From an uncultured Candidatus Saccharibacteria bacterium (GTDB lineage: Bacteria; Patescibacteriota; Minisyncoccia; Minisyncoccales; CAZWNE01), in the NCBI GenBank assembly GCA_964635155.1, contig CAZWNE010000003.1:1-40418 (forward strand): 40,418 bases of DNA, written 5' to 3'. Below, piece by piece: positions 985-40,418 of the stretch. The notes beneath the pieces are model-generated. The model saw nothing but the letters and a program-made list of their open reading frames with translations. It was not told where the DNA came from and made no database searches. The position numbers and the translations under genes are program-made. Position 1 is the first letter of the stretch; each line of letters begins with the position of its first letter.

Positions 985-1377
985 TTACTCTTTAATTTCG
1001 CAGAATTTACCCAGAATTTCTTTGGTTTTTTGCAGATTTCTGTCTTCAACTAGAAGATAGCTGGTCTCGTAGGTATCTATATAAAATATGCTGATATCCG
1101 CATCAGCCAGAGGTTTAGCTAAAGAAGCGACAATTCCCGTCAAGGAAAAACCCAGAGGGCCTTGTACCTTGAAAACCCTCCAATCAGTTTCCGCCAAAAT
1201 TCCGGCCGGAATTTTTTCCTGAGGCAGGATTATTGAAAGCTCGTTCATCGTCCTCGTGACGGAAGTAAAATTGCTGTCTCCCTGAGCCCAATCGGGAATC
1301 GGGCTGTTCTTGTCTAAATGGCAGATGCCTATTTTATCCGGCAAAATAGATAGCGCGAGTTTTGTATTGTTCTCCAT
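985..1377 (-). CDS. ACT-domain protein (ACT_7-like)
   Basis: 130 aa. The pattern ...NELSIILP...WRVFKVQGPLGFSLTGIVASLAKPLADADISIFYIDTYETSYLLV matches the stand-alone ACT_7 family as I recall it. Confidence 0.6.
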   Translation of the reverse strand: MENNTKLALSILPDKIGICHLDKNSPIPDWAQGDSNFTSVTRTMNELSIILPQEKIPAGILAETDWRVFKVQGPLGFSLTGIVASLAKPLADADISIFYIDTYETSYLLVEDRNLQKTKEILGKFCEIKE

Positions 1378-1400
1378 AAAACGAATTTTTTATTCTAAAA

Positions 1401-1435
1401 AATGAAGTTAAAGATGAAGTCGACACTTCATCGCC
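1401..1435 (-). repeat. double-hairpin repeat family 1, partial copy (hairpin 1 + linker)
   Basis: The minus strand reads GGCGATGAAGTGTCGACTTCATCTTTAACTTCATT. It overlaps the stop codon of the ASCH gene. Confidence 0.6.
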
Positions 1436-1916
1436 TTTTTATTTTAGCAATATTTCCCAAGGTTAGCCACGCCGACATGTTCCCGAATCCGGCTTTATTT
1501 ATATTAAACGGCTTTATTTTCTGGGGCTTTTCTAAAAATATCAACAAACAGTATTTTTTATTTTTAAACAACTTATAAAATTCGGGGATTTCATTTTTCC
1601 CGATCCCGTCGTCTTTGCCGTATTTATTTAAAATTTGCTTAACTTTTTGAGGAGTCAGATCGGGAGGTCGATGAAGTAATACTTTATCGACACCTTCGTC
1701 CGCTCTGGGCGGACTCGGTAAATAAATAACTTTTTTTACTTTGGCTTTTACTGAAACCGGCTCCCCTGAATTTTTGAAATAAATTGTATCCCCTTTTTTT
1801 ATTTTCCCCCACGGACAGCGTTTGGATTTATACCATCTTGATTCTATTTTCTTTTCTCGGGAAAGAATCTTCCCCATCATCCCCCACGACTTTTTCATTA
1901 TAGCTACGTGATCCAT
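1428..1916 (-). CDS. ASCH (PUA-like) domain protein carrying an in-frame repeat-element insertion
   Basis: 162 aa. The N-terminal KKGDTIYFKNSGEPVSVKAKVKKV and C-terminal YCLLIFLEKPQKIKPFNINKAGFG are ASCH-like. The central LPSPPRADEGVDKVLLHR is encoded by repeat copy 1666-1718. Confidence 0.55.
   Translation of the reverse strand: MDHVAIMKKSWGMMGKILSREKKIESRWYKSKRCPWGKIKKGDTIYFKNSGEPVSVKAKVKKVIYLPSPPRADEGVDKVLLHRPPDLTPQKVKQILNKYGKDDGIGKNEIPEFYKLFKNKKYCLLIFLEKPQKIKPFNINKAGFGNMSAWLTLGNIAKIKRR
1666..1718 (+). repeat. double-hairpin repeat family 1, full copy inside the ASCH CDS (antisense to the gene)
   Basis: GGTCGATGAAGTAATACTTTATCGACACCTTCGTCCGCTCTGGGCGGACTCGG aligns along its whole length with copies 15434 and 38876. 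Both stems are retained. Confidence 0.7.
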
Positions 1917-8442: not shown

Positions 8443-8451
8443 TGCCATTTT

Positions 8452-8480
8452 ATATTAGAAAACTTAAAATATAATGTCAA
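8452..8480 (-). promoter_or_regulatory. sigma70-like promoter of groES-groEL
   Basis: The minus strand reads TTGACA (8480-8475), a 17-nt spacer, then TAATAT (8457-8452). Confidence 0.45.
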
Positions 8481-8487
8481 CTAGGCA

Positions 8488-8526
8488 GGCGATGAAGTTA
8501 CTGCTTCATCTGCTTTCACCTTCGCT
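8488..8526 (+). repeat. double-hairpin repeat family 1, partial copy
   Basis: GGCGATGAAGTTACTGCTTCATCTGCTTTCACCTTCGC. It lies between the terminator of 8564..9100 and the groES -35 box. Confidence 0.6.
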
Positions 8527-8550
8527 TTTTCTCCAAAAAAGCTCGGTAAG

Positions 8551-8573
8551 AAAAAGGCGCAAATTAATGCGCC
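8551..8573 (-). terminator. intrinsic terminator of gene 8564..9100
   Basis: The minus strand reads GGCGCA-TTAATT-TGCGCC followed by TTTTTCTT. It overlaps the stop codon. Confidence 0.55.
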
Positions 8574-9100
8574 TTCCGGAATCGGGAGAAGATTCTCCCG
8601 ATTAAATTTGACCTTTGGGGCTGTTTTAGCCTTAAGATATACTTAACGGCTTGGCTCACCTGAAAGGGAGAAAGTTTGGCAGTATAAGCCGACATAATTA
8701 AGTCTAACATCTTCTTTTTGGCGATGTCTTCGCCTTCATCATGAAAAATGATGAAAGGAACAATTCCGGCTTCCTGGCATCTTTTGATTATTGAGAATCT
8801 GTAATAGTTTTTGACCTGGACGTTTATTTCGCTCCTGTCCAGCAAAGTCAAAACCAGGTCTATTCCTGTCATATCCGCCGGGCTTAATCTTTTAATCTGG
8901 ACAACCCTACGGATTAAGCCTTTCCCGGCCCAGAATTTTGCCGCCTTCAAAGCTTTTTCTTCAGCGTCAAATCCTCTTTGGTCTTTATTGTCAGAAGGAA
9001 TACCCGTTAAGCCGGCGGTAATCCTTGCTACTCTTTCGAGACCCTTAACGCGCCTTTCTATCGCATCGCGAGCTTTTCTAATTTTTGTTCTAACGCCCAT
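8564..9100 (-). CDS. hypothetical protein, possible restriction-endonuclease-like (PD-(D/E)xK, Mrr_cat-like) fold
   Basis: 178 aa. GFDAEEKALKAAKFWAGKGL...DMTGIDLVLTLLDRSEINVQVKNY resembles the G-x-FE ... D-x-GID ... Q-x-K layout of Mrr-type nuclease cores. Assigned by eye only. Confidence 0.3.
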   Translation of the reverse strand: MGVRTKIRKARDAIERRVKGLERVARITAGLTGIPSDNKDQRGFDAEEKALKAAKFWAGKGLIRRVVQIKRLSPADMTGIDLVLTLLDRSEINVQVKNYYRFSIIKRCQEAGIVPFIIFHDEGEDIAKKKMLDLIMSAYTAKLSPFQVSQAVKYILRLKQPQRSNLIGRIFSRFRKAH

Positions 9101-10137: not shown

Positions 10138-10167
10138 GCCCCGGGTAAAATATCCGGGGCTCTTTTT
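10138..10167. terminator. terminator between the convergent protease and uvrA genes
   Basis: GCCCCGG-GTAAAATAT-CCGGGGC followed by TCTTTTTA. Confidence 0.6.
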
Positions 10168-11779
10168 ATTTAAGATTTTTTAAATATTGTCCAGTGTAGC
10201 TTTTTTTAATTTTAGTGATTTCCTTGGGATTGCCCTGGGCGACGATATAACCGCCTTTTTCTCCGCCTTCCGGACCCAAATCCAAAATCCAGTCGGAATT
10301 TTTAATTAAATCAAGGTTGTGTTCAATTGTGATAACCGTATTCCCTTTGTCTACTAATCCCCGCAAAACAAAAACTAATTTTTTAATATCGTCGGGATGC
10401 AAGCCGGTGGTCGGCTCGTCTAAAATATACAATGTCTTGCCCGTGGCTTTTTTAGAAAGCTCGTCGGCTAATTTTACCCTTTGGGCCTCGCCCCCGGACA
10501 AAGAAGGAGCCGATTGGCCCAATTGGATATAACCCAAGCCTACTTCGTTCAAGGTTTTCAATTTCTGGAAAATTGCCGGAATCGGCTGGAAAAATTTCAA
10601 AGCGTCTTCAACCGTCATTTCCAGAACATCGGCGATATTTTTCCCTTTATATTCAATGGATAAGGTCTCTTTATTAAATCTTTTCCCCTGGCATTCTTCG
10701 CACTCAACATAAACATCGGGTAAAAAATACATTTCGATTTTTTTCACGCCCTGTCCTTCGCAGGCCTCGCATCTGCCTCCCTTAACATTAAAAGAAAATC
10801 TGCCCGGCCGATAACCCCTGACTCTCGCTTCTTTAGTTTTGGTGAAAAGGTCTCTTATATATGTAAAACAGCTTGTGTAGGTTGCGGGATTTGACCTTGG
10901 AGTCCTACCTATGGGCGATTGGTCAACTAAGACCGCCTTGTTCAAATTTTCAATCCCCAAAATCGCTTTGTGAAGACCCGGCTCTTCTTTGGCCCGATAA
11001 AACCTTTTCAGCAAAGCCCGGGCCAAAATATCGTTCATTAAAGATGATTTGCCCGACCCCGACACCCCGGTGATGCAAACAAATTTCCCAAGCGGAATTT
11101 TAACGTCTATATTTTTCAGATTATGCTCTTTAGCGCCTTTGATCGTTAGAAACTTGGTTTCTTTTTGTTGAAACCGAGTTTCTATTAAAACGGTTTTTCT
11201 CCCCGATAAATAGTCTCCCGTCAAAGTATGGCTTTTTAATAGCTGACTTGGCGTTCCTTCAAAAATAATTTTTCCGCCGTGCTTCCCGGCCCCGGGCCCC
11301 ACATCTATTATCCAATCAGAACTCCTGATTGTCTGAGGATCGTGTTCAACTACAATAACGCTATTTCCCAAATTTCTTAATTTTTTTAAGGTTTCAATAA
11401 GCCGGCCCTGATCTCGGGGATGAAGCCCGACCGATGGTTCATCTAAAATATATAAAACTCCGGTTAATTTGGAGCCGATTTGAGTGGCTAATCTTATTCT
11501 TTGCTCTTCCCCGCCGGATAGAGTATCGGCGCGTCTGTCTAAGGTTAAATAATCCAGGCCAACATCAATTAAAAACTGTAAACGATTGATAATTTCTTTA
11601 ATAATCGGGTTGGCAATTTTTATTTCATCGGCTTTCAGTTTTAAGCCGGCAAAAAACTCCTTCAATTTATCAATCGGCATTTCTACGATTTTATCGATTG
11701 ATTTTCCAGCTATTGTCACGGCTAATACTTCCGGCTTTAATCTTTTTCCATGGCAAATTTCGCATTTTTTCACGAGCAT
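10166..11779 (-). CDS. uvrA: excinuclease ABC subunit A, C-terminal fragment (downstream of the in-frame TAG)
   Basis: 537 aa starting [21 protein letters not shown], with [12 protein letters not shown], a second Walker [11 protein letters not shown], zinc module CEACEGQG...CEECQGKRF and [12 protein letters not shown]. Confidence 0.9.
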
Positions 11780-11785
11780 GTATTG

Positions 11786-12787
11786 CTAAATTTCCTGCCT
11801 GACAAAATCAGAATCGGTTTCGTGATATATTCTTTCAAGCCAAGGAATAACGCCTTCAATATCTGCCTGACCATACTTATATATTAAATTGGGATTGGCT
11901 AAAACCAATTTCGGGTCAACTTCCAATTTTTCGCCCAGGCCCTGGCATCCGGGACACGCTCCAAAAGGGGAATTGAAAGAAAAAAGGCGAGGTTCCAATT
12001 CTTGCATAGAAATACCGCAGGCCTCGCAGGCAAAATTCTCGCTGAAAATTGAATCATTTACCATGACTATCCCCTTGCCTAGCTTTAAAGCTGTTTCCAA
12101 AGAATCAACCATCCTAGATTTATCCAAATCCCTATCCAGAATTAATCTGTCAACCACCACTTCAATATTGTGTTTTTTATTTTTATCCAGTTCTTTTGTT
12201 AGGGCCTCTTCTAAAAGATAAATTATGCCGTCTATCCTGGCTCTGACAAAACCGGCCCTTTTTATTTCTTCCAGAATTCCTTGATGCTCCCCTTTTTTCT
12301 GACGGATAACGGGCCCCAAAATGGTAATTTCTTTATTTTTAGCTCCGCCCGAGGATGGATTTAAAATCTGCTCCACAATCTGGTCAATCGTTTGCCGGGA
12401 AATCGGTTTGCCGCATTTCGGGCAATGAGGCTTGCCGATTCTGGCAAATAAAAGACGAAGATAATCATAAATCTCCGTCATTGTGCCCACGGTGGAGCGC
12501 GGATTATGGCTGGCTTTTCTTTGGTCAATGGAAATTGCCGGGGAAATCCCTTCGATAGAATCGGCATCGGGCTTGTCCATTATTCCCAGAAACTGCCTGG
12601 CATAAGGCGAAAGCGATTCCACGTATCTTCTCTGGCCTTCGGCATATAAGGTATCGAAAGCCAAAGAGGACTTGCCCGAACCCGAAAGTCCGGTGATGAC
12701 CACCAGTTTATTTTTAGGGATATCAACGTCTACGTTTTTCAGGTTATGGACCCTGGCCCCCCGAATTTTAATAAAATTTTCCGGCAT
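11786..12787 (-). CDS. uvrA: excinuclease ABC subunit A, N-terminal fragment (ends at the in-frame TAG)
   Basis: 333 aa with [10 protein letters not shown], Walker [20 protein letters not shown]...CEACG and [17 protein letters not shown]. It is in the same frame as 10166..11779, separated only by TAG-CAA-TAC. Confidence 0.9.
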
Positions 12788-12847
12788 AGCAGTGTCGTAT
12801 TATACTTCAAATTTTGAAAAATTTCAAGAATAAGATACGATATACCA

Positions 12848-13897: not shown

Positions 13898-14765
13898 AAC
13901 CCTTGTCATCATCTTGTTATTGACGGCCGCCGGTTTTTATCTGTATCAGCAAAAAAAACAAGACCCCATTTCTCTTTCGGCAAGCGAGCTGGCGCAAGGC
14001 GACACTCTTTTAATTAAAATGAATGGCTCGGCATCCGAGGAGAAAATCACCGGAGAATTCGGTTCCCGAAAAATAGATTTTTTCCAACAGACAGCTATTT
14101 TAGGCATTGATGTCAATGAGAGGCCAGGCGAGCATATTTTAATTATAAATTTGCCAAGCGGCAAAAAAATAGAAAAAATAATCAATATCAGCAAAACGGA
14201 TTTCCCAACAACCGAACTTTTGGTCACCAAGGAACTCCGGAAAAAGGGTTACACTCCCCAAAAAATCGTCGGCAATATTCAAGGGGAAGAAGGTTTAACT
14301 TTAAAAAAAATTATTAGCACTTATACTCCAAAAATTTATTTTGACAAGGCCTTTATCAACCCCCTAAAAGAAATTAAAATCGTCGGGGCTTTCGGCATTA
14401 TCAAAAAAACCGGCAGTTCGACCATTCAGCACCTAGGAGTTGATTTGGACGCCGAAATCGGGACCGAGGTTTTGGCCAGCAACGACGGCAAAGTAAGTTT
14501 TTCCCGGGAACTGCCGGATTACGGCAGAACCCTGATTATAGACCACGGCTTGGGGATTTATTCTCTTTATCTGCACTTGGAAGAATTCAAAACTTTTGAA
14601 GGAAAACTGGTCAAACAGGGCCAAGTTATCGGGCTTTCGGGCAACAGCGGGTACTCCATTGCCCCTCATTTGCATTTTTCAATCAAAATCAACAATGCCA
14701 ACGTCGACCCGCTGAAATTTCTTGAAACCACGCAGTCATGGAGAAATTCAAATATCTTGGAATAG
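13884..14765 (+). CDS. M23 (LytM-type) peptidoglycan endopeptidase
   Basis: 293 aa with a signal/TM, HLGVDLDA (HxxxD), GRTLIIDHGLGIYSLYLHL and SGNSGYSIAPHLHFSI. Confidence 0.88.
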   Translation: MRKIKTLVIILLLTAAGFYLYQQKKQDPISLSASELAQGDTLLIKMNGSASEEKITGEFGSRKIDFFQQTAILGIDVNERPGEHILIINLPSGKKIEKIINISKTDFPTTELLVTKELRKKGYTPQKIVGNIQGEEGLTLKKIISTYTPKIYFDKAFINPLKEIKIVGAFGIIKKTGSSTIQHLGVDLDAEIGTEVLASNDGKVSFSRELPDYGRTLIIDHGLGIYSLYLHLEEFKTFEGKLVKQGQVIGLSGNSGYSIAPHLHFSIKINNANVDPLKFLETTQSWRNSNILE

Positions 14766-15940
14766 AACAAATTAACAAACTCCCCGAAACTCCCGGGGTT
14801 TATGTTTTCCCTGCCCTGAGCCGCGCCGAAGGGTTTCTTTACATTGGCAAGGCGGTTAATCTCCGCGATCGGACCAAACAACATCGTGGGTTGCTTAACC
14901 AGGTTAAGCAACTAGGATATATCCGAACTGATTCCGAGATTGAAGCCCTGATTCTGGAGTCCCAGCTAATTAAAAAATACCAGCCCAAATATAATACTAT
15001 ATGGAAAGACGATAAAAACTACTTTTATGTGGCGATAACTAAGGAAGATTACCCCAAAGTTTTAATAGTTCACCAAAAAAAAGAAGGGGCTGAATACATA
15101 GGGCCGTTTGTGGAAGGAAGCGCTCTAAAGCAAACGTTAAAAATACTTAGGAAAATATTCCCCTACTATACGCAAGGCAAGCACCCCAAGGGCCCTTGCC
15201 CTTGGTGCCGCTTAAATCTTTGCCCCGGACCAAATCCGGATAAAAAAGAATATCAAAAAAGCATTAAAAATCTAATTTCGGTCCTGGAGAGTAAAAAGAA
15301 GTCCGTCCTGAATAATTTGAAACAAGAGATGAAAAAGGCCTCAAGAGAAGAAGATTTTGAAAAAGCGGCTAAATTAAGGGACCAGGTCATAAATTTGGAA
15401 AAAATAATTTCCAACGCCAAAATCTTTCCGCAGGGCGATGAAGCGTTGCTTCATCTTCATCTTCGTCCCGCTTTACGGGACTCGATAATGGAAGCTTATG
15501 ACGTTTCTAATATCCAGGGAAAATATGCCACCGGTTCCATGGTAACTTTTATTAACGGCCGGCCGGAGAAAAATTTCTACCGCAAATTCAGAATTAAAAT
15601 GGCCGATAAGCCGAATGACACAGCTATGCTTAAAGAAATCCTCTCTCGCAGATTAAAACATTTAGAATGGCCTTTGCCCGATGCTATCTTAATTGATGGC
15701 GGAAAAGCGCAACTCAACGCCGCCCTGCTGATAGCTAAAAACTATCAACTAAAAACTAAAATAATGGCTTTGGCGAAAAAGAAAAACGAATTGTTTATTG
15801 AGGGGAAAAAATCGCCGATTTTATTAAAAACCATGCCGAGGGAAATGTTTAATTTAATTTTAAATTTAAGAGACGAAGCGCACAGATTTGCCATCTCTTA
15901 CCACAAAAAACTAAGAGCTAAAGCATTGCTTCCAGAATAG
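14738..15940 (+). CDS. uvrC: excinuclease ABC subunit C, short form (no C-terminal HhH2), carrying two repeat elements in frame
   Basis: 400 aa with GIY-YIG (PGVYVF...LYIGKAVNLRDR...EALILESQLIKKYQPKYN), a Cys cluster, a UVR domain (EEDFEKAAKLRDQVINLEKI) and an RNase H-like endonuclease domain (EAYDVSNIQG...YRKFRIK...ILIDGGKAQL). It ends right after that domain. Confidence 0.88.
   Translation: MEKFKYLGIEQINKLPETPGVYVFPALSRAEGFLYIGKAVNLRDRTKQHRGLLNQVKQLGYIRTDSEIEALILESQLIKKYQPKYNTIWKDDKNYFYVAITKEDYPKVLIVHQKKEGAEYIGPFVEGSALKQTLKILRKIFPYYTQGKHPKGPCPWCRLNLCPGPNPDKKEYQKSIKNLISVLESKKKSVLNNLKQEMKKASREEDFEKAAKLRDQVINLEKIISNAKIFPQGDEALLHLHLRPALRDSIMEAYDVSNIQGKYATGSMVTFINGRPEKNFYRKFRIKMADKPNDTAMLKEILSRRLKHLEWPLPDAILIDGGKAQLNAALLIAKNYQLKTKIMALAKKKNELFIEGKKSPILLKTMPREMFNLILNLRDEAHRFAISYHKKLRAKALLPE
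14890..14912. repeat. palindrome family 2 (10-3-10), perfect copy inside uvrC
   Basis: GTTGCTTAAC-CAG-GTTAAGCAAC, with exactly complementary arms. Confidence 0.8.
15434..15484 (+). repeat. double-hairpin repeat family 1, full copy inside the uvrC CDS (sense)
   Basis: GGCGATGAAGCGTTGCTTCATCTTCATCTTCGTCCCGCTTTACGGGACTCG is 51 nt (17 codons). Confidence 0.75.
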
Positions 15941-26117: not shown

Positions 26118-26141
26118 ATATAATTATTATATCATACAAAC

Positions 26142-27007
<866 letters not shown>

Positions 27008-27191
27008 ATAAAAATTGGTTTTAAAAACTTAATAGGACAAATAAGGTTTATTGCTAGCATTTTTTATTTAGAAGGACATGGTTTACAAAAACAAAGAGAA
27101 AGAAAAGTAAAACAGAAAAGAGTATTATCAAAATAACATAGAAAAGATACTAAAAAATAAAAAAGAATACTACCAAAGAAATAAGGAAAAA

Positions 27192-27794
27192 ATGCGAGAG
27201 CGAATGCGGTCGTATGGTAAGAAGTGGTATCTAAAAAACAGGGAGAGGATGCGATTGCTTCATAAAGAATACTATCACAAAAATAAAGCGGGCGTATCGC
27301 AATACCATAAAAAATGGTATAAAAATAATAAGGAAAAACTGTTAAAATATAGCGAGATCTATTATCAAAAAAATACAGAAAAAATACGACAACGCCATAG
27401 ATTGTATAATCAAAAAAATAAGAGAAAAATATTAAAGTATAAGGGGGAGTGGCAAAGACATATGGCGAAGACAGATCCTAAATATCGTCTTGATCAAAAT
27501 ATGGGGACAGCTCTCTGGAATTCCTTAAAAAATAAAAAAGCAGGAAAAAATTGGGAAATTTTTGTTAATTACACATTAGAAAATTTAGTAAAACATTTAG
27601 AAAAACAATTTAATAATAAAATGAACTGGAGTAATTACGGAAGCTATTGGGCAGTTGATCATATAAAACCGCGGAGTTTATTTAATTATTCTTCTCCGAA
27701 TGATCTTGGATTCAAACAATGTTGGGATTTAAAAAATCTACAACCATTAGAGAAAATAAAAAATATAATAAAAGGTAATCGTTATATTAATTAA
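27192..27794 (+). CDS. free-standing HNH homing-type endonuclease with N-terminal tandem-repeat region
   Basis: The C-terminal WAVDHIKPRSLF...NLQPLEKIKNIIKGN is an HNH motif. The N-terminus holds about 6 degenerate 15-16-aa repeats (YYxKNxEKxxxxxx). The same frame continues upstream to ATG 27078 but is broken by TAA at 27108-27110. Confidence 0.75.
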   Translation: MRERMRSYGKKWYLKNRERMRLLHKEYYHKNKAGVSQYHKKWYKNNKEKLLKYSEIYYQKNTEKIRQRHRLYNQKNKRKILKYKGEWQRHMAKTDPKYRLDQNMGTALWNSLKNKKAGKNWEIFVNYTLENLVKHLEKQFNNKMNWSNYGSYWAVDHIKPRSLFNYSSPNDLGFKQCWDLKNLQPLEKIKNIIKGNRYIN

Positions 27795-31264: not shown

Positions 31265-31287
31265 GTTGCTTAACCTGGTTGAGCAAC
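31265..31287. repeat. palindrome family 2 copy, between the GNAT gene and the ftsK start
   Basis: GTTGCTTAAC-CTG-GTTGAGCAAC, with one arm mismatch (G-T on the plus strand). Confidence 0.75.
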
Positions 31288-31888: not shown

Positions 31889-31911
31889 GTTGCTTAGCCT
31901 AGTTAAGCAAC
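31889..31911. repeat. palindrome family 2 copy, between the rpoC stop and the GNAT gene
   Basis: GTTGCTTAGC-CTA-GTTAAGCAAC, with one arm mismatch (G-T on the plus strand). Confidence 0.75.
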
Positions 31912-38667: not shown

Positions 38668-38780
38668 ACAAAACAAACGAAAAGACCCTAATGCTTATCT
38701 TGTTTTAGGGTAAAAATATTGAATTTTAACTTAAAAATGAGGGGGTCAATTATTTATCAAGTTTTTAATTCATTAAAAAT

Positions 38781-38812
38781 GCAGATGAAGATGAAGCTTT
38801 AGCTTCGTCGCC
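38781..38812 (-). repeat. double-hairpin repeat family 1, partial copy in the rpoB leader
   Basis: The minus strand reads GGCGACGAAGCTAAAGCTTCATCTTCATCTGC. Confidence 0.65.
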
Positions 38813-38841
38813 TAACAAAAGAAACCGATTACGTAAATTTA

Positions 38842-38870
38842 ATACTACTCCCTTTATTTTTTGGTGTCAA
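38842..38870 (-). promoter_or_regulatory. sigma70-like promoter upstream of rpoB
   Basis: The minus strand reads TTGACA (38870-38865), a 17-nt spacer, then TAGTAT (38847-38842). Confidence 0.4.
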
Positions 38871-38875
38871 GTACG

Positions 38876-38928
38876 CGAGTCCCGCAAAGCGGGACAAAGC
38901 GTGAAGATAAAGCTTTAGCTTCATCGCC
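38876..38928 (-). repeat. double-hairpin repeat family 1, full intergenic copy
   Basis: The minus strand reads GGCGATGAAGCTAAAGCTTTATCTTCACGCTTTGTCCCGCTTTGCGGGACTCG. It starts 2 nt after the TAG stop of the TPR gene and ends 5 nt before a TTGACA box. Confidence 0.75.
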
Positions 38929-38930
38929 AG

Positions 38931-40418
38931 CTACTTCTTGTTCAAATCGTTCAAGCGCAATTTTACTTCCTGATTATCCGGGTTTAATTCCAGCACTTTT
39001 TCAAAATAAGTTCTAGCTTTGGCATTATTCCCTTTTCTCTGCCAGGCCAAGCCCAAAGAATAAAGGGCGTTAGAATGATTGGGAAAGATTTGAAGCACGG
39101 TTTCGAACACGGCAATGCTGTCTTGCAATTGATTATTGTTATAGTAAAGCCGGCCGAGCCAGAATCTCAATTCCGCATTGAAGGGATTCGCTAAAACCAG
39201 ACTCTCCGTTGTTTTTATTGCTTCACTTATGTTCCCTTCTTGCTCTTGGACCAAGGCCTCCTGGAAAATGGCATCGATAAAATCTGGTTTTAATTCTTTG
39301 GCTTTGATTAATTGCTCTTTAGCTTTATTCAAATCATCCGGAATGTAAATTTTTGCCAGCTCGGTTCTTAATACGGGATTGGTGGGTTCTAATTCAATGG
39401 CTTTTTCAAATGATTTTATCGCCCAGTCAGCAGCTCCCTGAGTCATAATTCTTATATCTCTGTAAACCATAGCCATTGTTTCCCACGCCGCGACTTGGCC
39501 GGGCCCCCTTAAAACAGCTATTTTGGCAGTGTTAATGGCCTTGGCCACTTTCGTCTGAATAAGAGTGCCATCTGACTCCAAAACGGCATCTCGCAAATAA
39601 GTCCTGGCAAGAACTGTCCAATACTGGGCCTGATAAGGATTTAATTTCGCTGTTTTTTCAAGAAGAGCAATTCTAACTTTAGCATCAGCCGTTCTTTGAG
39701 CCTGAAGAAAGGTTTTGTCCGCCAGATAAAACCTGGCGCCAAAAAATATTAGCCCCAGGGCCCCAAGGCCGACCATAATTAAAATTGTTGTAAAAACTAA
39801 ATTCAGTTCTGGAAAATTTTTAAAAGAAAAAACTTTCTCTTTGATGGGTTTTTGCCAAGAAACCACCGACAGGGCCAGCACCAGCCAGAAAACAAAAGCT
39901 AGAATCGTATTCTGATAATAAACAAATTGGCTGACTACTAAAGCGGTAAAAGCCATGAATAAAGGCAGCTGGTAATTTTTTGCCTCCGAATTTTTATTCG
40001 TAAAAAAATAACTTACCAGCAAAAACATTGAAATTAGCGCCAGCCAAAAAAGAATGCCCAAAAATCCCATTGTGCCAAGAATTTCCGAAAAATAAGAACC
40101 CGACCGGTCAAATCTTATCTGCCAGAGCTGATTCTGATTGAAACTAACCGGCTTTTCTTTGGCAAAATCATAATGGAAAGTGCCGAGACCGGAACCAAAA
40201 AAAGCTGACTTGACATTATCGGTTGCCGATTTAAATCCGACCTGCCAGGAAATACTCTGCCCCAGCACCCGCTCTCGAGGTAATTGGAAATCAATTAAGT
40301 TGACGAAAAGAAATAAACTTGATACTAAAATCAAAAATATCGGCAGCAAGAGCTTGTTTACGTTTTCTTTAAAAATTCTCTTCCATAAAGCAAAACCCAG
40401 GAATAAAATTAGGCTCGC
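38931..40418 (-). CDS. polytopic membrane protein with C-terminal TPR repeats (O-antigen-ligase-like/TPR type); N-terminus off window
   Basis: The reading frame stays open from 40349 to the window end, so the track TTG start is not the true start. It has several hydrophobic helices, then TPR units (FEKAIELEPTNPV..., ALYSLGLAWQRKGNNAKARTYFEKVLELNPDN). Confidence 0.6.
   Translation of the reverse strand, partial: ASLILFLGFALWKRIFKENVNKLLLPIFLILVSSLFLFVNLIDFQLPRERVLGQSISWQVGFKSATDNVKSAFFGSGLGTFHYDFAKEKPVSFNQNQLWQIRFDRSGSYFSEILGTMGFLGILFWLALISMFLLVSYFFTNKNSEAKNYQLPLFMAFTALVVSQFVYYQNTILAFVFWLVLALSVVSWQKPIKEKVFSFKNFPELNLVFTTILIMVGLGALGLIFFGARFYLADKTFLQAQRTADAKVRIALLEKTAKLNPYQAQYWTVLARTYLRDAVLESDGTLIQTKVAKAINTAKIAVLRGPGQVAAWETMAMVYRDIRIMTQGAADWAIKSFEKAIELEPTNPVLRTELAKIYIPDDLNKAKEQLIKAKELKPDFIDAIFQEALVQEQEGNISEAIKTTESLVLANPFNAELRFWLGRLYYNNNQLQDSIAVFETVLQIFPNHSNALYSLGLAWQRKGNNAKARTYFEKVLELNPDNQEVKLRLNDLNKK

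Follow-up and report, generated by a model that had tools for sequence, protein, structure and literature searches.

A candidate family of miniature hairpin insertion elements in Ca. Nealsonbacteria-like Patescibacteria

The genomes of the candidate phyla radiation (CPR), or Patescibacteria, are tiny and gene-dense and are usually called poor in mobile elements. The repetitive extragenic palindromes (REPs) of other bacteria are extragenic, carry a GTAG-type head, form inverted doublets and are moved by RAYT (HUH Y1) transposases. In Rickettsia, palindromic elements (RPEs) of ~100-150 bp occur in-frame in housekeeping genes, where they are translated as additional peptide, and bacterial MITEs (miniature transposable elements with inverted repeats) can insert into an operon without breaking it (PMC10969869). 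CPR bacteria and phages also contain the TIGR arrays of TIGR-Tas systems, the stem-loops of which lie beside a Nop-domain tas gene (PMC12045711). The subject of this report is a short repeat composed of two hairpins, six copies of which are found in a 40,418-nucleotide stretch of contig CAZWNE010000003.1 (the window, always meaning the whole of that stretch) from an uncultured Candidatus Saccharibacteria bacterium. Comparison with related genomes makes it probable that this repeat is a mobile, selfish hairpin insertion element, which is small, non-coding and non-autonomous and resides in Ca. Nealsonbacteria-like Patescibacteria.

Hairpin 1, which is common to the six sites, reads GGCGATGAAGY-N3-4-RCTTYATC. 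The pattern GGCGAYGAAGY-N4-RCTTYATC has eight matches in the window (four sites on both strands) against 0.02 expected from dinucleotide shuffles, a test that is independent of the covariance model described below, and the copies with a 3-nt loop, at 1668 and 15434, are recovered by a regular expression of variable loop length. The GC-rich form of hairpin 2 is matched twice, where 0.00 matches are expected. A covariance model seeded with 26 aligned family members, including the six window copies, and run over the window with filters off gives exactly six matches (53.6-68.7 bits, E 1e-17 to 1e-23; Table 1), after which come only echoes on the opposite strand (under 22 bits) and noise (under 9 bits). 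As single-stranded DNA, five of the six copies fold well beyond shuffled sequence, with z-scores of -3.0 to -5.1. An initial annotation of the window, made by eye, had placed copies at all six of these positions and had judged copy C and the reverse complement of copy A to agree at roughly 43 of 52 positions, close to the 44 of 53 now measured. It had also named shuffled-sequence controls, structure-preserving covariation, a scan for further copies and a comparison of filled and empty orthologous sites as checks, and each of these has turned out in its favour: the family passes the shuffles, its stems covary strongly, hundreds more copies exist in other genomes and filled and empty sites are present between near-identical strains. 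Its division of the copies into full and partial was wrong, as the three ‘partial’ copies are complete, with an AT-rich hairpin 2 that was missed by eye, and its description of the element as GC-rich is true of three copies (GC 0.53-0.55) and untrue of the other three (0.30, 0.33 and 0.45), the window as a whole standing at 0.40. Membership of a known RNA family was ruled out using Rfam, which at gathering thresholds matches only two tRNAs over the window, leaving the element unmatched, and with a permissive E-value gives only chance-level matches over 38700-38960.

Table 1. Copies of the hairpin element and the rpoB promoter-like site in the window, with the extents of the covariance-model matches and the three AT-rich forms of hairpin 2
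Feature	Extent	Strand	Length (nt)	Covariance model (bits)	Extent of model match	AT-rich hairpin 2 and following bases	Remarks
Copy A = 38928(-)	38872..38928	-	57	53.6	38871-38931(-)		DNA fold z = -3.95
rpoB promoter-like site	38842..38870	-					TTGACA-17-TAGTAT; 10/12 consensus positions (promoter scan)
Copy B = 38812(-)	38755..38812	-	58	60	38753-38815(-)	TTTTTAAT-GA-ATTAAAAA, then CTTGATA
Copy C = 15434(+)	15434..15487	+	54 (18 codons)	65.3	15431-15489(+)
Copy D = 1666(+)	1667..1720	+	54 (18 codons)	56.2	1664-1722(+)
Copy E = 8488(+)	8488..8548	+	61	68.7	8485-8550(+)	GCTTTTT-CTCC-AAAAAAGC, then TCGGTA	antisense to both flanking minus-strand genes
Copy F = 1435(-)	1379..1435	-	57	65.8	1377-1438(-)	ATTTTTT-AGAA-TAAAAAAT, then TCGTTT	sense, 3' end of ASCH gene

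The element is 45-65 nt long across the family and 54-61 nt in the window, and its layout can be written (A)GGCGAWGA-(stem-loop 1)-TCWTC-TTC-A-N-C-TTC-(stem-loop 2)-T-Y-G-N'-T-A. The order of hairpin 1, linker TTCACCTTCG, hairpin 2 and a conserved CTCGGTA is kept across the flanks of matches from the genome scan, whilst the sequence of hairpin 2 differs widely from copy to copy (GCCTG/CAGGC, CCCGC/GCGGG, TTTTTTA/TAAAAAA and others). Standard pairs occupy 94% of cells in the 26-sequence alignment, compared with 82% in shuffles, none of 500 of which reaches 94%, and pairing falls to 29-52% when the partners are slid by 1-3 columns. All seven pairs of hairpin 2 change on both sides. Around hairpin 2, and separated from it by an internal loop (TTC opposite TY), A-N-C pairs with G-N'-T in a third short helix, of which the N/N' pair covaries (CG 17, AU 5, UA 2). 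In a larger sample, covariation extends to the inner part of hairpin 1 (AGC/GCT, GGAC/GTCC, AAT/ATT) and only the feet, GAWGA/TCWTC, are fixed; in the upper parts of both stems the sequence is free and the pairing is kept. Conservation thus tracks base pairing and not codons. Hairpin-2 stems are found with their loop in both orientations (TTT/AAA, ATAAAT/ATTTAT, ATTCT/AGAAT), the signature of inversion across a palindrome and an indication that the palindromes extrude and recombine as DNA. Mismatches within the stems comprise 24 A.C and 9 G.T, so wobbles, if anything, lie on the antisense strand, and no sense-strand RNA structure is indicated by G-U wobbles. Within the window, hairpin 1 of copy A is GATGAAGC/GCTTTATC (38925-38918 with 38913-38906), its hairpin 2 is GTCCCGC/GCGGGAC (38895-38889 with 38885-38879) and its 3' end is TCGCGTA, with an outer ACGC/GCGT helix predicted by the fold; copy B pairs GACGAAGC with GCTTCATC in hairpin 1 (38809-38802 with 38797-38790), and the fold of copy E includes an ACC/GGT outer helix.

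All of the related sequences considered here are metagenome assemblies. A wide genome scan, with one genome per species and a pattern consisting of hairpin 1 plus TT, found several copies per genome in metagenome-assembled genomes (MAGs) of Ca. Nealsonbacteria and other Patescibacteria, which are dominant among the matches listed. The covariance model yields 226 matches in 701 kb of loci from these scans, and some 8-kb loci contain 6-10, although locus sets chosen by pattern are biased towards element-rich regions. The window itself has six copies in 40 kb, and one related locus, L103, has ~13 in 21 kb, whereas only eight copies were found in 510 kb of loci from 80 relatives, which were chosen via the TPR protein and thus independently of the element. 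The family is therefore abundant in Ca. Nealsonbacteria-like Patescibacteria, at up to ~1 copy per kb, and nearly missing in many relatives. The ‘Saccharibacteria’ label of some of the MAGs looks doubtful, since their UvrA is 68-74% identical to that of a Nealsonbacteria genome. Matches outside Patescibacteria (Pedobacter, Actinomycetota, Chloroflexota and others) were discarded, as they consist of hairpin 1 only, occur once per genome in coding sequence and score no more than 33 bits. Carriage by phages or viruses was likewise rejected: two pattern scans of viral contigs gave chance-level matches, and of the 16 loci from the second, not one was upheld by the covariance model.

Mobility is indicated by differences between closely related strains. 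Between loci L102 and L103, which share 96% identity across 12 kb, there are ten or more clean insertions of 37-57 nt (48, 57, 57, 37, 54 and 48 nt in one; 48, 54, 45 and 45 nt in the other). Three uvrC alleles that are ~97% identical at the DNA level differ by four element insertions (48, 45, 99 and 48 nt) at four places and in both orientations, giving a total of ~14 clean insertions of 37-99 nt between strains 96-97% identical. Filled and empty pairs are counted here as insertions, each pair being readable also as a precise deletion. A 64-nt intergenic copy also distinguishes L109 from L108, and a 45-nt copy in L104 is nested within hairpin 1 of another copy. Among the insertions that separate L102 and L103, a 54-nt one in L102 lies in the hairpin-2 loop of another copy, and a strain-specific one of 37 nt is a 3' half-element, consisting of linker, hairpin 2 and CTCGG, directly after a tRNA gene (L103:15586-15622), where the tRNA's own stem looks as if it replaced hairpin 1. 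Head-to-tail tandem arrays were observed at L095:7640-7800 and L046:1-80 (47-48-nt period, short ‘type B’ tail) and at L009:502-671 (a 54-nt in-frame triplet in uvrA), and abutting copies in arrays are joined as CTCGGTA/GGCGA.

Over the ~14 events, which took place at sites unrelated to one another, the boundaries of the insertions are precise and reproducible. Their junctions are ambiguous by just 0-4 nt (0, 0, 1, 3, 3, 4 and 4 across events), with none at several insertions, and hence there is no fixed target-site duplication. Nor are there terminal inverted repeats, as the 5' GGCGAWGA and the reverse-complemented 3' end TACCGAG share only CGA at the outer hairpin feet. The 5' flanks of recent insertions include GAGA, GAAA, AAAG, AAAT, TGGG and CCAT, among others. 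A fixed 3' target, ‘ATGA’, had been hinted at by the flank profile and was rejected, being mostly missing in recent insertions and largely attributable to the downstream start codon. No clear preference for one orientation is seen in recent insertions, most of them intragenic (~7 sense, 5 antisense). Those in genes are all stop-free multiples of three bases, whilst intergenic copies lack three-base periodicity, as is expected from selection acting after insertion. The aperiodic intergenic copies exclude an element length that is inherently a multiple of three, and excision from mRNA by splicing was dismissed, all intragenic insertions being stop-free and divisible by three.

By comparison with homologues, and with the relative L109, that lack them, the window copies likewise appear to be insertions, and translation and homologue comparison indicate that the host open reading frames (ORFs) stay intact. 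The only closer contigs, L105 and L106, are of the same strain and carry the same uvrC copy, the sole copy site on them; the closest relatives beyond these are 71-76% identical at the protein level. Copy C lies sense and in frame within uvrC (14738-15940), encodes GDEALLHLHLRPALRDSI and is placed by Pfam analysis of the translation in the UvrC linker, which separates the UVR motif from the RNase H-like endonuclease domain. The closest UvrC homologue, P0002 (71% identical), reads WPQKRIEAYD where the window protein reads FPQ-GDEALLHLHLRPALRDS-IMEAYD and is thus missing the insert, in a linker that is hypervariable among 120 homologues. Copy D is antisense and in frame within the gene for an ASCH-domain protein (1428-1916, minus strand), where it encodes LPSPPRADEGVDKVLLHR. 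Only the window protein and two homologues that share 76% identity with it have this 18-residue insert, which is absent from more than 110 other ASCH homologues, including ones that are 71-73% identical, the commonest length being 143 aa. Copy F supplies the end of the same gene, the TGA stop codon of which (1428-1430) falls inside GGCGATGA of the element; the C-terminus is KIKRR in the window and KIKVR in homologue P0125, and the ATG of the next gene (1377) comes directly after the copy.

The wider context of the family was summarized over ~107-125 strong copies, using simple ORF calls as genes and without correction for shared ancestry. Between 27 of 107 and 40 of 125 copies lie inside long ORFs, and about two-thirds are intergenic. 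Copies within ORFs are mostly sense and, when sense, almost always share one frame, GGC GAT GAA... (18 of 20), whilst antisense copies encode an unrelated peptide. Many intergenic copies fill the whole spacer, with the next ATG often 0-3 nt on, and in ~8 cases the TGA that closes the upstream gene belongs to the element. The organism can tolerate such tight packing since it hardly uses Shine-Dalgarno sequences: among 34 genes of the window only 6 have a Shine-Dalgarno-like motif upstream, and in many a TATAAT-like box immediately precedes the ATG. Examples lie at 8446-8457, 12788-12810 and 26118-26141, and the -10 box of groES ends 3 nt before its ATG, a pattern that suggests widespread leaderless or Shine-Dalgarno-independent initiation.

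Copies A and B bracket the rpoB promoter, as the initial annotation had proposed, lying on either side of a site that is kept as TTGACA-17-TAATAT in L109 and L181. Its claim that copies adjoin stop codons and TTGACA boxes also holds: copy A begins 2 nt past the TAG that terminates the TPR gene and stops 1 nt short of the rpoB -35 box, and copy E, which lies between an unknown 178-aa ORF (8564-9100) and groES, has its 5' end 7 nt away from the -35 box of the latter gene's promoter (8480 to 8452, minus strand), on the opposite strand. Element copies abut rpoB -35 boxes in L181 as well as in the window. Copy B is in the sense orientation within the rpoB 5' leader, 27 nt downstream of the -10 box. 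In L109, the TPR protein of which is 74% identical, the same promoter is followed by a conserved leader (TTTACGTAA...TTTTTACCCTAAAA) with nothing in place of copy B, and the TPR-rpoB spacer has an ordinary hairpin where the window has copy A. The terminator or insulator role that had been suggested on the basis of these positions is not supported. The intrinsic-terminator pattern of a GC-rich stem followed by a T-run is absent from both rpoB-side copies and from the groES copy, the sole match among the copies being a weak one to hairpin 1 of copy F; moreover, copies occur within ORFs in both orientations and a spacer copy is missing from a relative.

Several further features were observed around these promoters. 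Just upstream of the rpoB start, which is likely to be ATG 38667 (TTG 38676 in the ORF list), there is a leader hairpin (38669-38711, minus strand; ACCCTAAAA...TTAGGGT, then a stretch rich in T). It is also found in L109, L112 and L181 and has an attenuator- or leader-like look. In L112, which has a TPR protein 53% identical, three copies of the element, one of them inverted, lie between this hairpin and the start codon (L112:5560-5700). Beside copy E, a hairpin of sequence unrelated to the family, GGCGCA-AATTAA-TGCGCC (8551-8580), covers the stop codon of ORF 8564-9100.

These observations can be brought together in a model of a mobile element filtered by selection. Copies would insert, or would have done so until recently, at new sites and in either orientation, with neither target duplication nor terminal inverted repeats, and selection would then filter the survivors, leaving in genes only stop-free multiples of three. 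Copies within genes would be translated into short hydrophilic peptides located in linkers and loops, the usual frame being G-D/E-E-A-K-A-S-S-S-P..., whereas intergenic copies would fill very short spacers, some providing the upstream gene with a TGA stop and many ending at the next start codon. We infer that the element is a selfish one, of no use to its hosts, and that a trans-acting enzyme able to recognise the folded hairpin DNA moves it. Its features point towards a single-strand transposase of the HUH/Y1 type, with IS200/IS605 TnpA and RAYT as the closest known models, although the identification with that specific type is doubtful.

A number of findings weigh against this model. In sequences that sample a small part of any one genome, a search for a transposase or integrase in the window, next to dense arrays, in the DNA separating inverted copies and within brackets of half-elements gave none: the products of ORFs that inverted copies enclose are a DEAD-box helicase, PheRS and a LysM-CHAP protein, those beside dense arrays are housekeeping genes, and no gene bracketed by orphan 5' and 3' modules occurs in ~1.4 Mb of loci. 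Copies look like mosaics in which the same hairpin 2 is combined with different versions of hairpin 1, an arrangement that simple copy-and-paste from a master copy would not lead one to expect. Some of the in-frame copies are old and fixed, such as the one that four genomes with UvrA proteins 68-77% identical share at a single UvrA site, in triplicate in one of them, so that the copies are not all transient. An HUH-type enzyme in particular is disfavoured by the flanks, where 3' WTGA is present in only 3-5 of 12 recent insertions and no tetranucleotide is fixed. Finally, copies in spacers between same-strand genes are sense in 44 cases and antisense in 9 (p = 1e-6, uncorrected for shared ancestry), a bias that could reflect a selected RNA-level effect. 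Because recent and mostly intragenic insertions show no clear orientation preference, the intergenic bias probably arises from selection. Avoidance of the Shine-Dalgarno-like GAAGGTGA carried by antisense copies was considered as an explanation and is weakened by the scarcity of such motifs upstream of window genes.

The first alternative to an element moved by an enzyme is that the repeats spread without any dedicated transposase, by hairpin-induced template switching or gene conversion among copies already present, during replication or repair, leaving new mosaic insertions at short microhomology. It is favoured by identical hairpin-2 modules joined to different hairpin-1 modules, by tandem arrays and nested copies and by the half-element right after a tRNA. 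The flip/flop loops show that the hairpins extrude and recombine, the junction microhomologies of 0-4 nt resemble the element ends (GAG, AGGG, GGTA), and the failure to find a transposase beside arrays, between inverted copies or within half-element brackets fits as well. Nevertheless, this process, though a live alternative, is unlikely, given the precise and reproducible boundaries at unrelated sites, the conservation in distant genomes of the stem-foot bases and internal loop, which resembles that of a protein recognition site, and the lineage-specific bursts, which are typical of enzyme-driven transposition.

It is also rather improbable that the element functions chiefly in cis, as an RNA or a transcription signal (a terminator or insulator, for instance, a hairpin that stabilises mRNA, or a processing site between cistrons), with mobility serving only to spread the signal. 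The sense bias in same-strand spacers, the many copies that occupy exactly the interval from one stop codon to the following start codon, the three helices kept paired by covariation, the copies abutting rpoB -35 boxes in two genomes and the position of copy A, where L109 has an ordinary terminator-like hairpin, would all fit such a role. Against it, no T-run follows the GC-rich hairpins and the rpoB and groES copies fail the terminator scan; about a third of copies lie in ORFs, in both orientations; orthologous sites in 96%-identical strains lack copies; G-U wobbles are not enriched on the sense strand; copy E is antisense to both of its neighbours; and the element has no match in Rfam. A third proposal, that the similarity is one of a conserved peptide motif or protein module (G-D-E-A-K-A-S-S-S-P...) with incidental DNA hairpins, as the common frame of sense copies and the same peptide at the UvrA site of four genomes might imply, is effectively refuted by the intergenic majority and by antisense copies encoding an unrelated peptide, and is opposed too by conservation that follows base pairing and by the lack of the insert in almost all homologues of the host proteins.

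If the element is indeed mobile, then it would represent a major overlooked source of strain-level variation in CPR genomes. It would be a likely cause of odd protein lengths, gene-calling errors and broken assemblies in Patescibacteria MAGs, and would offer a natural experiment on how much random peptide insertion essential proteins tolerate. The combination of conserved stem feet and internal loop with free upper stems would mark a specific system of recognition between nucleic acid and protein that is within reach of phylogenetic profiling, for which the contrast in copy number between sister lineages gives a direct handle. A bolder proposal, put forward tentatively, is that of a new class of mobile element, a hairpin pair of 45-65 nt that is read by its shape and not its sequence, is moved without duplication by a hairpin- or single-strand-specific CPR enzyme or by an enzyme-free template switch, generates ~1 difference per kb in 96%-identical strains and routinely rewrites essential proteins (UvrA, UvrC, EF-P, RNase J and PGM) in genomes that are held to be streamlined and to have little mobile DNA.

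The window contains other features that are separate from this family. A second palindrome, GTTGCTTARCC-N-RGTTRAGCAAC, occurs at 14890-14912, 31265-31287 and 31889-31911, each matched on both strands where 0.00 matches are expected; the copies that follow ftsK and rpoC are intergenic and the third lies in the N-terminal coding part of uvrC. A similar-looking hairpin (GGTTGGCTAAGCCAACC) follows the TPR gene of L109, and the palindrome may be a terminator-type hairpin family. The uvrA gene (minus strand) is split by a TAG at 11786-11788 into ORFs 11786-12787 and 10166-11779, whilst the sibling contig L105 (99.8% identical) has C for A at 11788 and an uninterrupted uvrA ORF. Seven of the nine differences between the window and L105 fall within 11642-11829, and six of those seven are A in the window and C in L105; strain variation, a pseudogene or an error in the sequence could each account for the split. 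Around 7 tandem units with a period of 45 nt, 61-70% identical, extend over 27078-27430 and run into ORF 27192-27794, which has no Pfam match, in a region of 30% GC.

Comparison with described systems places the element close to several and within none. It shares with the RPEs a short palindromic structure, a reduced host genome and a distribution that takes in unrelated housekeeping genes, in-frame, as well as intergenic sites, and its intragenic insertions, as stop-free multiples of three, are compatible with translation in the same way. It differs in length (45-65 nt), in its unrelated sequence, in its Patescibacteria hosts, in having two separate covarying hairpins and in its much denser strain polymorphism, ~1 difference per kb between 96%-identical strains. 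Like REPs and the inverted doublets known as REPINs, it is a short hairpin repeat with a conserved 5'-foot motif, neither terminal inverted repeats nor duplication, and hundreds of sometimes clustered copies. Unlike them, it is not confined to extragenic DNA, 27 of 107 to 40 of 125 copies being in ORFs; it consists of two unlike hairpins in fixed order with the head (A)GGCGA, rather than a single GTAG-headed palindrome; and its arrays run head-to-tail, with no RAYT gene among the ORFs between inverted copies or beside arrays. Minimal derivatives of IS200/IS605 also have a hairpin near each end, asymmetric ends, no inverted repeats and no duplication, and the hairpins of the present element, to judge from the flip/flop loops, evidently form in DNA. 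IS200/IS605 elements, however, insert 3' of a fixed tetra- or pentanucleotide and have conserved hairpin sequences, whereas here the flank is loosely purine-rich, then A/T, and the upper stems vary freely. The MITEs (Correia, ERIC, RUP, Chunjie) are similarly small, non-coding, multicopy and strain-polymorphic, with instances of stop-codon donation and promoter adjacency, but possess terminal inverted repeats and a fixed target-site duplication, both of which are lacking here, and are usually 100-400 bp long. TIGR arrays, found in the same bacterial group, resemble the element in their variable yet consistently palindromic stem-loops and short conserved flanking motifs. They are, however, tandem arrays of 5-15 units with variable non-palindromic spacers, whereas the element is dispersed singly, also within ORFs, and its non-hairpin parts are conserved; with no Nop-domain gene among the window ORFs scanned, a TIGR array was rejected.

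Each of these categories (MITE, REP, RPE, IS200/IS605 derivative, TIGR array), and that of the intrinsic terminator, fails on at least one tested defining feature. As a result, the element is better said to work like a REP, MITE or RPE than to be one of them, and of the initial suggestion of a selfish REP/RPE-type palindrome, the idea is borne out by the further copies, the covariation and the filled and empty sites, whilst membership of those families is not. Literature searches, which were not exhaustive and so leave an earlier description possible, found no account of such repeats in CPR bacteria, and together with Rfam they agree with the original remark that no such CPR family had been described. 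The repeats are accordingly rated as a new family of miniature hairpin insertion elements of unusual architecture, best likened, by analogy, to a combination of RPE behaviour, namely the in-frame colonisation of housekeeping genes, with a REP-like structure.

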